In this document: positions 5,110 through 12,947 of the stretch, piece after piece
How positions within the stretch are numbered: position 1 is the stretch's first letter
How the letters are laid out: every line of letters begins with the position of its first letter
From: Sedimentisphaerales bacterium
GTDB taxonomy: Bacteria; Planctomycetota; Phycisphaerae; Sedimentisphaerales; Anaerobacaceae
Assembly (NCBI GenBank): GCA_963708075.1
Contig: OY970194.1
Coordinates: forward strand, 4,768,001-4,832,000
Direction: 5' to 3'
Length of the DNA: 64,000 nt
Position numbers and translations under genes: made by a program
The notes under the pieces: generated by a model
Database searches by the model: none
What the model saw: only the letters and a program-made list of their open reading frames with translations
What the model was told of the DNA's origin: nothing

Positions 5110-5965
5110 ATGTCCCACAGAATCACAGGTAAACGTCAAATCGGAGAAGACGTCTTCTGGGCGGAGGTCGAGGCCCCGCTGATTGCGGCGGCTCGCAAGC
5201 CCGGCCAGTTCGTTCTTGTCTGTATCGATAGCAATTATTCCGAGCGCATCCCGCTGACGATCGCCGAGGTGAATCGCGAGAAGGGCACGATCGAGTTGAT
5301 CTGGCAGCGGGTGGGTAAGACCACGACCGAGATGGCGGACATGAAGGAAGGTGATGTGATTGGGAATATCGCCGGGCCCCTCGGCACGCCCACGCACATC
5401 ACGCGTTACGGCACGGTCGTCTGCGTTGGAGGCGGCATCGGCAACGCCCCGCTGCTGCCCATCGCCACCGCGCTCAAGCACGCGGGCAACCGAGTCATCA
5501 GCATCCTCGGGGCCAGGGACAAGACCCGGCTGATTCTCGAAGACCGCTTCGCAAAAGTCAGTGACGAGATGATCGTCTGCACCGACGACGGCTCCTACGC
5601 TCGCAAAGCCCTGGTGACGGAGCCGCTCAAAGAGGTCTGCGGACGCAATCCCAAGCCCGATCATGCGTTCATCATCGGCCCGACGCCGATGATGAAGTTT
5701 TGTTGCGAGGTGACGCGGCAGTTCAGCGTACCGACCGAGGTTCTCGCTGAACACGATCATGGTCGATGGCACGGGCATGTGCGGCGGCTGCCGCGTCGAG
5801 GTGGACGGCAAAGCCAAATTCGTCTGCGTGGACGGCCCCGAATTCGACGGACACAAGGTCAACTTCGACCTCATGATCAAACGGTTGAACGCCTACAAAG
5901 CCCAGGAGCGACAGGCCCACGAGAACTATAAGCAGCACCGCTGCAAATTGGGCCCCGAAAATTGA
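5110..5965 (+). CDS. nfnA: NfnA/SudB-like FAD/NAD-binding 2Fe-2S subunit with an apparent +1 frameshift at ~5741 (possible sequencing error)
   Basis: PGQFV, ERIPLTI, GPLG, GGGIG and TDDGSY in ORF 5110; MVDGTGMCGGCR...CVDGPEFD in ORF 5759. Removing one T restores VSLNTIMVDG. Confidence 0.88.
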
Positions 5966-9933: not shown

Positions 9934-10716
9934 AGCAAAAAAGCCGGGCTGTAAGTCCCTGGGCCACAGGGGGTTACAAGTCTTGTCGTTATCTAACATA
10001 TATTCCTGTAACATTCTGCCCTCCGGGAGCGTCTATTCTGTATGGTCTTACGACCATCGTTCGCCCGGCGAGGCTGTGTGCAGGCAGGCCTGCGGCAGGG
10101 CTCAATCGTAAATCAAAACTCGTAAATCGTAAATCCTAAGTTCCTGGAGGGCTTCCCATGGGTAGCCAAGCACGAGTCGCCGCCAACCGTCGTAACGCCG
10201 CCAAATCCACCGGACCCCGCACGGTGGAGGGCAAAGCCGTCGTGGCCCGGAACGCCGTCAAGCACGGCCTGTGGGCCCGCCAGGCCGTGCTCAGGAACGA
10301 AGATCCGCAGGAATTCGAGCTGCACCGCAGTCGGATGCTCCGGAAGCTGGCTCCGGATGGGCCGGAGGAAGAGGCGATGGCGGAACGCATCGTCGGTTCT
10401 CTGGTGGCGGCTCAAACGGGCCGAACGCATGCAGGATGAGGCCCTCGATTATCTGATCGAGGCGGATCGCGGCAGCGACTGGGTCAAGTGCCGCCGTGAG
10501 AACCGCGATCCATCGGCCAGGGCCGAGCTGAGCTTCGGGCGGGCGGTCGCGCGGGACTTCGCCGAGACAAGGACCCTCGACCGGCTGACAATGCACGAAC
10601 GGCGGATCGAGAGCAGCCTGTACCGGACGATGAAGGAGCTGCGGCAGCTCCGGCGAGAGGAAAAAGGCCAAGACGGGCACAGGGCATCGAGTTCGCACAA
10701 TTTGAGGGATCACGAC

Positions 10717-10914
10717 GGGTGGCAGCGGCAAGCGCAGCCTGCGGAGCTTGCCGATGGTGTTGGGCTGCATCCTGACGCCATCGGCAAGCTGCCGCTTGCC
10801 GCTGCCACCCAGAACTCAACAACCTGGGACAGACCCAACTCGTTTGACGGTGCGGATTCGAAGAGTTCCGGCCATCCGAAAGTCCACGGGCAAACGAGTT
10901 TGCCCGTGCCACCC
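10717..10914. repeat. Composite GGGTGGC-family palindromes inside the hypothetical ORF
   Basis: gggtggcagcggcaag...cttgccgctgccaccc (10717-10810, related to 20281-20373), then segments matching the element at 120-376. Confidence 0.75.
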
Positions 10915-11087
10915 GGAGGGAGCGATTCCGCGAAACAAAGCCAATTCGGGGAGCCTCAAGGCGACCATCGCCAAGCTGCGCTTGACGCTGCCACCCATAC
11001 CGTCGTAAGCGACTGTGCGAAACAAAGCCAATCGGCGGAAGTCCCAAGTCTGACGTGTGAAGTGTCAAGTGAGGCTGGCCCGGCGGC

Positions 11088-12310
11088 CAGGGCTATCGCA
11101 TCTAAATGCCAAGGACCTTAAGCAGGTAGTCTCGGTCCCAGCCGGCTCGGAGGCGTTTGGCGGCGATGCCGCCCTTGGCCGTCTTCTCCTGCTTGAGCAG
11201 CATCAGGGCGATTCGACGCAATCGCGAGAAGTTCTCGGCGGCGTTGGCCACTCGGACTCGACTGGCGTCCTCATGGAAACTCACGTCCAGCGACCAGTGC
11301 AACTGGACCTCCACGGACCAGTGATGGCGAATCAATGTCCCCAGACGCTGGGCACAGTGTCCCGGATGGGAGCTGATGAAGTAGTGTCGCTTTCGTTCGC
11401 ACTGGCCGTTGACCTGACGCTCTCGCTCGATGGCCGTGAGGCTGCCCAGACCCGGCCAGTCGTGACGCCCTTGCAGCCATCCCACATCGCTGGTAGTCCA
11501 CACCCGCCGGGTTTCCAGTCGTCCATGGCCTTTTTCCACGGTTTCCCAGAAGTCCTGCTCGCCGGCAAACCCGTGGGCGATGCCGTCCTCCATGTACATC
11601 CGGGCATCCTCGTACAGAGTCCCTTGGTTAGCCTTGAGGGCCAGCACATAGTCGCCGCCCTGATCGACGATCTGCTCGGCGATCTCCTTTTGACAACCCA
11701 TGGCGTCAATCGTGATGGTTGCCTCCTCCACGTCGAGCAGCTTGAGCAACTCCGGGATCGCGGTGATCTCATTGCTCTTGGCATCGACCGCCCGTTGGCC
11801 GAAAGCCACGCAGTTCTCGTGGACCCAGGCACTGACCATGTGCAACGGGCCTTTGGCACGGACCCGATCAAAGCTGTTTCGCAGGGTCTTGCCGTCGATG
11901 GCGATGTGCTTGCCCCGGCTGCTGCCGGCCAGATCCGCCACAAACGCCTGCATGACCGCTTCAAACGCATCCGGGTCCAGGGCGGCAAAGACCCGACCAA
12001 AGGTATCATGCGATGGAATGCCATTGGGCAGGTCCAGAAACGTGCCAAACCATTCCTCGTTGACGTTGCCGAACATCTCTACGTCCGTCCAGTGCTCAGC
12101 CCCGCAGATCACGGCACAGACGCCAATGACCAGAATATCCTGTAATTCATGCCGTTTCGTCCGCTCCACGCGAGGATCAGGAACCGCGGCAAAATGATCC
12201 CAAATCGATTTCTTCATCAAAAACGTATTCCTCTCTACTTGAAGTGTCTTGCTTCTGAGAAGAATACGAAACCATGCCTGCAAAGGCTCAATTTAGATGC
12301 GATAGCCCTA
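11088..12310 (-). mobile_element. ISAs1-family insertion sequence, complete
   Basis: 20-bp TIRs (cagggctatcgcatctaaat / atttagatgcgatagcccta, 19/20 match); 10-bp TSD gcccggcggc at 11078-11087 and 12311-12320. Confidence 0.95.
11102..12217 (-). CDS. ISAs1-family DDE transposase
   Basis: [65 protein letters not shown]. Confidence 0.96.
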
Positions 12311-12572
12311 GCCCGGCGGCCGAGGACAAACCAACGTGCGAAACAAAGCCAATGGAGACGCCTGGGGCCGAGTGTGCGAGACAAAGCCAATCTGTGACGG
12401 CGGAAGGTGGGCACTGCCCACCCTACAAAACGGATCGTGCGAAACAAAGCCAATGCCGCAAGCCGGCCGCGGGCGCTGGGGCCATGCTGCGGCCACGGCC
12501 GCGGGTCGCATACCACTGCCACGACATCGCCCGCTCGTACTGATCGACGGGAAAGACCGGCAACGCGGCTCG

Positions 12573-12947
12573 AATCCGCCACCGAAGGCCAACCCCACCC
12601 CATTCCCCGGGTATGGTCGGAATTCGGTGGCGGCGTGTAGCCGCCGTGTGCGGACTGCGCCTCTTTCGTCCCTTACGGGACTGGCTTTTGTCCTCGGCCC
12701 CGGTTCCCCAGCGATCAATCGCTGGGCTATTCTCTGTCGCCCTCCGGGCTTGGACTTGGCTCCAGTCCTCTTGCGTCGGCCCGTCCGCCCCACGGGGGCG
12801 ATCGACACTAGCCCACCGTTTCAACGGTGGGTACGATAGTCAATCCTATCTCAAAGCCCCGTAGGGGCGAAAGAAGACTGGGCTGCGCTCTTGTGTCGGG
12901 TGGAATCCAAATCCGCCACCGAAGGCCGACCTCACCCTGTTCCCCGG
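12573..12947. repeat. REP-like cluster bounded by ~38-bp direct repeats
   Basis: aatccgccaccgaaggcc...ttccccgg at 12573 and 12910. Inner inverted ends at 12662-12682 and 12855-12874. Hairpins cccagcgatcaatcgctggg and cccaccgtttcaacggtggg. Confidence 0.7.

Follow-up and report, generated by a model that had tools for sequence, protein, structure and literature searches.

In the Neisseria intergenic mosaic elements (NIME), arrays of the dRS3 repeat alternate with families of RS spacers of 19–214 bp; these arrays are dynamic at syntenic sites, are invaded by insertion sequences (IS) and other repeats, and have been proposed to serve as recombinase sites (PMC1797815). Here, we analyzed a locus of a Sedimentisphaerales bacterium (assembly GCA_963708075.1, contig OY970194.1, positions 4,768,001 to 4,832,000 of the forward strand; this whole stretch of 64,000 nucleotides is called the window), in which a gene for a helical protein with the conserved sequence ANRRNA..KHGL is followed by five copies of a 16-bp motif. 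The locus is a damaged copy, frameshifted and interrupted by an IS, of a widespread, unnamed dispersed bacterial repeat element. The element shares with NIME a short repeat that flanks variable spacer families in dynamic arrays. However, dRS3 is a 20-bp inverted repeat, for which the accessible part of the NIME report mentions no linked gene or leader (PMC1797815), while the 16-mer is asymmetric and polar, is located behind a dedicated gene and a promoter-like leader, and is conserved across phyla. As to the recombinase trait of NIME (Piv/IS110-type), the genome contains one PF01548 match, which is not beside an array.

A gene accompanied by its own short repeats dispersed throughout the genome is also found in the REPtrons, which encode RAYT proteins, and an IHF site is present in the element BIME-1. 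Mosaics of repetitive extragenic palindromes (REP) and other motifs occur in the bacterial interspersed mosaic elements (BIME) (PMC3733652). In contrast to REPs, the 16-mer is not a hairpin with a GTAG/CGTC foot, the protein has no HUH/Y1 match, and REPs are here located inside the spacers, while the 13 Y1_Tnp matches of the genome are genes other than the array-linked gene. In the cosB region of phage lambda, the R3 and R2 sites flank an IHF site (PMC4669245). The likeness of the element to the small terminase (TerS)/cosB arrangement consists of a 45-aa N-terminus in common with one TerS group, and of sites at a fixed distance around a possible bending site; on the other hand, the element contains neither TerL nor portal genes, nothing is shared beyond residue 46, and the strict IHF consensus is mostly not matched.

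The CcaF1-CcsR1-4 locus of Rhodobacter also consists of a small protein gene with repeated units in its 3′ region, where the CcsR molecules are processed small RNAs (sRNAs) bound by a DUF1127 protein (PMC8034643). Unlike in that locus, here the spacers are variable, inverted copies occur, dozens of arrays are dispersed and no RNA fold is conserved; the searches of the gene against Pfam (DUF1127), of the array against Rfam and for a consensus fold were all negative. The leader, the repeat–spacer layout and the reordering of modules also resemble those of CRISPR arrays, TIGR-Tas systems and integrons. In contrast to these systems, Cas1 was not found, there was no significant Nop-domain match and no integrase in the element, the repeat is non-palindromic, and the spacers are shared and very uneven in length. 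No paper on the array–gene system was found in a literature search, with most subscription papers and supplements outside its coverage.

Results

The 16-bp motif is conserved as DNA and is tied to the gene

The five copies of the 16-mer, GCGA(A/G)ACAAAGCCAAT, are located on the forward strand of the window at 10930–10945, 11017–11032, 12338–12353, 12376–12391 (with one mismatch) and 12439–12454. Without the IS, the start-to-start spacings are 87, 88, 38 and 63 bp, and in the reading frame of the tail the third copy reads CETKP while the remaining four read A[K/R]QSQ; these features, which had been given in the original prediction, were all reproduced. In the whole genome (7.5 Mb) the 16-mer had 243 matches at up to one mismatch compared with 0 in a reversed control, which shows that its occurrence is not due to chance. 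The number of copies was 283 at up to two mismatches, and 290 when 3-mismatch copies inside clusters were counted. The copies form 41 arrays of 2–13 copies, each on a single strand, and the window locus is one of them, which bears out the proposal of an undescribed system and adds that it is present in many copies. Nine of the 41 arrays are located behind an ANRRNA..KHGL gene, while 32 are gene-less.

The relation of motif to gene was determined at the 80 best of 572 homolog loci, using a degenerate core pattern within 1.6 kb downstream of the start. On the gene strand, 132 motifs were located downstream; the opposite strand had 11, and 2 were upstream. Beyond the stop codon were 81 of the 132 copies (a slightly high number, because some starts are misplaced and some genes broken), while 51 were inside the open reading frame (ORF), in all three frames (15/23/13). 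The encoded peptides vary by lineage, with KQSQ, TKPI, NEPN and the reverse-strand ELASF. In one clade, an inverted copy is followed by a forward copy at all 14 loci, which were selected for this trait, mostly with two mismatches between the copies, and at another locus (L176) the strand opposite to the gene has a copy of the 16-mer upstream of it. Such inverted and forward pairs fit DNA sites better than an RNA word. The earlier suggestion that conservation is at the nucleotide level is supported by the three frames, the copies past the stop and the inverted copies; a motif present only as an in-frame peptide repeat was looked for and was not what was found.

A profile trained partly on the same loci, which makes the result partly circular, placed the motif downstream of the gene in 15 of 22 distant homologs, including those from Bryobacterales, Alphaproteobacteria and an Actinomycetota metagenome-assembled genome. 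Among 18 congeners, 16 had 1–21 gene matches per genome, and the motif counts ranged from 11 to 944. Of 12 genomes from other families, 11 had counts of 0–6, while the twelfth contained both 40 motifs and the gene, and in 15 sampled genomes without the gene the exact 13-mer was counted 0–2 times. In one genome whose arrays seemingly had no gene (G006), the start of the gene was present, cut at a contig end. Another genome (G011) had 18 motif matches, and the gene was not found there.

Leaders and gene-less arrays

The window array is preceded by a conserved leader (9935–10157, forward strand, with the left limit at about 9935). A profile made from it had 19 matches in the genome, and in all 19 cases an array followed downstream on the same strand. 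Four arrays are preceded by a leader of a second type, which has one weak match elsewhere in the genome, while the 18 remaining arrays matched neither profile. Several of the gene-less arrays, three of them at E<0.01, still have the ribosome-binding site and the first codons in front of the first motif, which suggests that these arrays are likely deletion derivatives. Most gene-less arrays appear to have lost the gene while keeping the leader. The gene-less arrays have no common sequence past the last motif, while seven of the nine gene-bearing ones share about 140 further bases. This subfamily-specific right end (12455–12600, forward strand), found in 0 of 32 gene-less arrays, consists in the window of the C-terminal peptide ...RVAYHCHDIARSY, with the stop at 12543, and about 55 bp.

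The pattern TG(C/T/G)AAC-N15-17-CGT(C/T) was present in 16 of the 19 leaders, including those of gene-less arrays. Its layout is like that of Streptomyces sigma-E target promoters (PMC6767563), and it is predicted to be a promoter of the extracytoplasmic function (ECF)-sigma type, located in the window at 10007–10033 (forward strand, TG(C/T)AAC-N16/17-CGTC). Between this putative promoter and the gene are a tract of the TCGTAAA heptamer, a host repeat (10106–10133, forward strand), and the ribosome-binding site (10146–10150, forward strand).

Terminal inverted repeats were not seen in alignments of the ends, which cannot be fixed without an empty allele. In a gene-less subfamily of this genome (G000) a truncated RAYT/Y1-like gene and a family-A repeat are located upstream of the leader (G000:C1, about 481700–482100; arrays 2286780 and 4446689), which suggests that a longer left flank was carried along when some copies moved. 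The downstream gene was on the same strand in 28 of 41 arrays compared with about 56% expected, a difference too weak to be used, as the gene caller was crude and miscalled the window locus. Replication polarity was also considered and rejected, as 17 of the 41 arrays are on the leading strand and 24 on the lagging strand.

Two motifs at a fixed distance form a core unit

The commonest layout in the homologs consists of two copies of the motif 88–93 bp apart around a 25-bp element (27 pairs). In 57 core units, chosen by a pattern that demands the palindrome ends, the two offsets were 38–39 bp in 53 and 27–28 bp in 54 cases (±1 bp), and by a strict pattern one core module each was present in thirteen gene-less G000 arrays. 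We infer that the ancestral unit was probably formed by two motifs at a fixed 90–92 bp around the 25-bp pseudo-palindrome. In the window, the same TAA-N19-TTA pseudo-palindrome is located in the leader (9952–9976), where it is a predicted protein-binding site. Pairing across the palindrome in the 57 units was close to the column expectation at most positions, with one above and one below, RNAalifold predicted no pair in 36 core units, and the 16-mer is asymmetric with neither foot nor stem. The label of an IHF site for the 25-bp element was weakened, because the E. coli consensus was present at up to one mismatch in only 5 of the 57 units.

Spacer modules are shared among unlinked arrays

To define spacer families, 247 spacers of up to 300 nt were grouped by single linkage at 70% identity or above, while shuffled sequences reached at most 0.64. 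In this way, 165 of the spacers fell into 26 families, all but one of which span more than one array, and 82 were singletons. The spacing ranges from 33 to more than 200 nt. When 227 spacers of at least 25 nt were compared with the genome, 92 held genome-wide repeats, 122 were unmatched outside arrays and 13 had one or two short matches. The suggestion that the window spacers carry pieces of genomic repeats was confirmed, with 232 matches for the half-palindrome, five for the 7-mer tract and four for the GTAG REP at the BLAST cut used. The repeats inside spacers are oriented, with GTAG hairpins on the opposite strand in 21 cases versus 3 and TTGCGGA in 40 versus 0, although these copies are related by descent. 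Tandem heptamers are also abundant outside arrays (98 tandem pairs of TTGCGGA, 88 of TCGTAAA, 33 of TCAAAAA and 33 of TCAGTTG).

When spacers at least 80% identical were compared between different arrays, of which at least one was gene-less, the neighboring spacers differed in all 42 of 42 pairs, while between gene-bearing arrays the neighbors differed in 36 pairs and agreed in 29. Unlinked arrays of genome G013 share blocks of 276 nt (96% identity) and 225 nt (97%), with both ends at motifs. Ends of shared blocks were at motifs in 21 of 28 cases versus 11.4 expected, 55 of 96 versus 37.8, and 53 of 84 versus 40.5, an excess that is biased because the alignments run through the shared motif anyway. 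These comparisons indicate that motif-plus-spacer modules are shared among unlinked arrays and were probably not captured from invaders. The claim of sequence capture, in the sense known from CRISPR, was not supported: most spacers recur in families, only the 13 mentioned above have one or two short matches in the genome, and none matched a phage or plasmid in searches with two arrays against phages, of which one was also searched against plasmids, the phages of this host being poorly sampled.

The turnover of arrays could be followed at a site upstream of the DUF1015 gene. There, gene-less arrays of at least 12 copies are present in G005 and G013, with a few shared modules that are ordered differently; G007 contains a single copy, and in the DNA covered no copy was seen for 15 of 18 congeners (one of them has no upstream DNA). 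Of 13 sampled arrays of G005, one shares its site with any of 11 sampled G013 loci. Two pairs of near-identical G013 loci on different contigs (L195/L197 and L196/L203) are likely strain haplotypes. In the two closest haplotype pairs the module order is kept at 97% and 99% identity, with point changes and small indels only. The differences among G005, G013 and G007 suggest array turnover between species, and of the hypervariability that had been proposed, variation among arrays is supported, while rapid change at the strain level was not shown.

The protein belongs to a large unnamed family, and its gene is under purifying selection

The conserved helical domain (ANRRNA.KSTGP.T.EGK..KHGL ... 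WRL.R ... ERRIE), about 170 aa long, is encoded at 10158–10670 on the forward strand, where it is split by an extra base. A single-sequence search gave 641 relatives and a profile search 5,703 among 8,000 scored candidates, so that there are at least 5,703, unnamed or annotated as hypothetical among the rows shown. The AlphaFold model is all-helical with a helical-hairpin core (mean pLDDT 80, and about 55 for residues 1–50). The gene had no match in Pfam or PADLOC, only sub-threshold rows in PHROG and NCBIfam, nothing below E 0.6 in a sequence search of the PDB, and nothing at E≤0.001 in Foldseek, while VIA-align gave only generic helical bundles (best Z 9.4). Among unrelated helical hairpins there was TasR at Z 7.8, over 57 residues only. 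All 30 of the 30 nearest clusters in the ESM Atlas were unnamed, residues 1–60 had no usable named match, and tblastn against curated phages and plasmids left the protein unmatched. From such negative searches a new fold does not follow. No recurring fusion partner was found, as four of 81 longer distant homologs had a Pfam match, all different. Tyr155 (alignment numbering), considered as a conserved catalytic tyrosine, was rejected because several intact G000 paralogs have His or Phe in its place. Among four young paralogs, which are located at unrelated loci, the synonymous divergence (pS) is 0.13–0.16 and the nonsynonymous divergence (pN) 0.03–0.06, and the pN/pS of about 0.25 indicates that the gene is under purifying selection.

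Discussion

A proposed dispersed mosaic element built around a double-stranded DNA site

The observed anatomy, gene–motif link, gene-deleted derivatives and module shuffling can be brought together by a dispersed mosaic element made of the leader, the helical-protein gene and the 16-bp array, whose protein would bind the motif on double-stranded DNA and whose modules would recombine at the motif; this is the explanation that we tentatively favor. According to this model, the protein would bind the 16-mer in double-stranded form, and two sites with the 25-bp element would be folded by the protein and a host bending factor into a DNA loop, the ancestral nucleoprotein unit. Such binding would fit with the N-terminal segment that the protein shares with phage small terminases, in which the N-terminus is the putative DNA-binding part (PMC9611059), and with the joint lack of this segment and of the 16-mer in family f36, both described below. 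The arrays could then grow and be shuffled through recombination at the motif, the spacers would be entered by host REPs and heptamer repeats, which are passengers there, and deletion would give rise to gene-less copies served in trans. New copies of the element would also be made in trans, by an enzyme of the host or of another mobile element, which is suggested by the lack of a known catalytic fold in the protein. Candidates in the genome are 13 Y1_Tnp genes, four tyrosine recombinases (PF00589) and one IS110-type gene (PF01548). In this genome neither a tyrosine recombinase nor an IS110 gene was found beside any array, and RAYT-like fragments are near two or three only. We consider it unlikely that the protein is itself the mobilizing factor of a new element class, that is, a helical enzyme or recombination adaptor of unknown fold, partly derived from phage packaging, which would recognize the one 16-bp site found across phyla, exchange modules and distribute gene-less copies with their promoter to sites upstream of host genes.

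Several observations weigh against the mosaic-element model. Within 1.7 kb, the motif was missing from seven of the 22 distant homologs, and the circularity of the profile mentioned above applies to the other fifteen, as does the selection by palindrome ends to the regularity of the core units. The bias in block ends leaves site-specific recombination and recombination by short homology not separated. Neither a target duplication nor a fixed left end was seen in the end alignments inspected by eye, and an empty allele was not found in close strains, where public contigs break at repeats and none spans the locus. The motif upstream of DUF1015 persists in 3 of 18 congeners, and a purely selfish element needs no such persistence. 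At eight of ten phage TerS loci there was no 16-mer within 4–10 kb, with only a weak distant match at the other two, so that a TerS-type N-terminus alone does not imply the 16-mer.

The signals that bear on the transcript belong to the same side. The G>C skew on the motif strand was found in 32 of 32 gene-less arrays, with a median of 0.22 compared with a median absolute skew of 0.06 in intergenic regions, and it was about 0.05 in gene-bearing arrays. The combination of G-rich gene-less arrays with a retained promoter-like leader points to a role of the transcript. In gene-bearing arrays, the frame of all 8 intact paralogs continues into the array, in seven of them up to the conserved C-terminal peptide; the frames of the motif are 39/11/0, and wherever a frame-1 copy has a successor, the frame is 0 again (9 of 9 cases, which are not independent). 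Random gene-less spacers are open across six modules in only 12.5% of cases, and 6 of 32 gene-less arrays are open in the paralog frame. The genome contains a Rho gene, and rut (Rho utilization) sites are C-rich, so that both the G skew and the open frames would protect the transcript from Rho. A second Rho-like gene, at G000:C1:5348462-5349565, is below the family cut-off. We read these signals as selection for transcription through the array, which the DNA-site model alone does not explain, and they support either a regulatory RNA or read-through into the next gene.

Alternative explanations

The regulatory RNA explanation is possible, though somewhat unlikely: the arrays would be RNAs with many sites, transcribed from the ECF-type promoter, whose A-rich single-stranded motif would be bound by the protein or by a host factor, so that they would act as a sponge or as processed sRNAs in the manner of CcaF1-CcsR. 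It is consistent with the promoter pattern of the leaders, which gene-less arrays retain, with the G skew of all gene-less arrays while gene-bearing ones keep an open frame, and with the A-rich core being mostly unpaired by prediction. However, the inverted copies of one clade and the opposite-strand upstream copy at L176 are arguments against it, the core unit is rigidly spaced yet without RNA structure, many homologs have only one or two copies, and Rfam gave no match inside the array.

The open frames could also mean that what functions is a protein whose low-complexity tail is variable, and that the arrays are a silent pool of modules by which this tail is diversified. The entry of all eight intact paralogs into the array, seven of them up to the C-terminal peptide, and the low chance openness over six modules would fit this idea, but it is improbable considering that 81 of 132 homolog copies are past the stop, that many homologs are about 190 aa long and have no tail, and that the peptide frame changes with lineage from KQSQ to TKPI, NEPN and reverse ELASF.

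It is quite improbable that the arrays arose passively, as a side effect of REP/RAYT activity and of slippage in intergenic junk, with the gene hitch-hiking. The genome-wide repeats in 92 of 227 spacers, the Y1_Tnp matches and the RAYT-like fragments upstream of at least two arrays speak for such an origin. Against it, the 16-mer forms no hairpin, hardly varies from phylum to phylum and is located behind the gene, the 13-mer is almost absent (0–2 counts) from all 15 sampled genomes lacking the gene, and the gene is under purifying selection.

A further explanation, which we regard as very improbable, is a minimal packaging parasite, in which a TerS-like protein and cosB-like sites would recruit the terminase of a helper phage to bring flanking DNA into capsids. 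Its basis is the N-terminus. Ten of 16 viral matches of the protein cover residues 3–46 only, over a different downstream domain, and in two of three such cases tested the next gene encodes TerL, with portal genes after it, which suggests that these viral proteins are likely small terminases. The hhalign probability against one TerS group was 99.4%, confined to 45 N-terminal columns, and homology ends at residue 46; homology to the oligomerization core was not found with the one TerS group tested, and TerS was missing among the top fold rows shown, with a pLDDT of about 55 for residues 1–50. In TerS the N-terminus is a putative DNA-binding part, described as a helix-turn-helix (PMC9611059), while the likeness found here is a 45-aa sequence match. 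Further support comes from the helical-hairpin core of the model and from the two sites around a possible bending site, which resemble lambda cosB (PMC4669245). However, most TerS genes have no motif nearby, the core pattern was not found in viral contigs by exact search, and packaging itself does not account for dozens of copies per chromosome. The phage small terminases in question (viral contigs L163–L170, L039 and L041) have the NA.KSTGP.T.EGK N-terminus followed by a four-cysteine segment, and this group matches only the unnamed PHROG 26872 and, below threshold, Terminase_4.

A link between N-terminus and 16-mer is favored by family f36, where both are lost together. All 11 of 11 genomes of this family have a single-copy homolog that aligns only from about residue 26–40 on, without the N-terminal motif. 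At the five loci inspected (L172:3665-4273, L173:3811-4407, L174:3719-4333 and L175:3772-4380, all on the reverse strand, and L177:3789-4409 on the forward strand) there was no 16-mer beside the gene, one locus having a single match 1.5 kb away. A second copy in G207, whose N-terminus is present, has a 16-mer 54 bp upstream on the opposite strand. The f36 genomes have 36–40% GC and 3–4.4 Mb, from which we infer anammox-type planctomycetes. In four of the five loci the homolog adjoins two ketoacyl-synthase genes and a FabA/Z-like gene, a cluster reminiscent of ladderane lipid genes, and the f36 homolog is possibly a domesticated copy.

It is extremely doubtful that the arrays are a memory of the CRISPR kind, in which foreign DNA or unique host DNA would be captured between the repeats. 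The repeat–spacer appearance, conserved leader, 82 singleton spacers of 247 and 122 of 227 spacers unmatched outside arrays are set against a spacing of 33 to over 200 nt, recurring spacers, the above phage and plasmid searches without a match, and the failure to find Cas1 (PF01867) in the 93%-complete genome, while cas2 was not searched; a lack of cas genes had been reported before.

Other features of the window locus

Within the coding tail, host palindromic repeats of family A and a relative are located at 10717–10914. The array is interrupted by an ISAs1-type IS with a DDE_Tnp_1 transposase, which is a passenger (11089–12310, reverse strand, 1.2 kb) with an 11-bp target duplication (11078–11088 and 12311–12321). 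The 13 genome copies of this IS at 99–100% identity suggest that it was recently active. In relation to four close paralogs, the gene contains an additional base near 10397–10399, by which it is split. Public-run contigs without the extra base (X1 and X3) differ at 15–18 further positions and for this reason look like paralogs, so that they do not distinguish a sequencing error from a genuine frameshift. A ferredoxin-NADP-reductase-like ORF (5110–5931), located before a glutamate-synthase-like gene, also seems to leave its frame near the end, which is a hint of single-base errors in the assembly.

The neighbors of the gene in the window are a glucuronyl-esterase-like gene and DUF1015, and not TerL or portal genes. 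In the repeat-rich intergenic stretch there are two opposed Rfam matches to Acido-Lenti-1 (12707–12750 on the forward and 12786–12831 on the reverse strand), which look like a REP-type doublet and have a high contig depth in public runs. Another palindromic repeat family is present at 12565–12644 and 12910–12947, one half of which makes up the right end in the young gene-bearing subfamily.

Significance

A protein family of at least 5,703 relatives, without a match in Pfam, PHROG, NCBIfam, PADLOC or PDB, gains by this analysis a candidate ligand, namely the 16-bp site and the 90-bp two-site unit. With up to about 950 motifs per genome, the arrays make up a large unannotated share of Sedimentisphaerales-type genomes, and they may explain some spurious ORFs encoding KQSQ, TKPI or NKPN. 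If the protein drives the exchange of modules, the element would be a new type of compact system for site-specific rearrangement, while if the RNA explanation is true, the arrays would be an unusually large dispersed family of regulatory RNAs.

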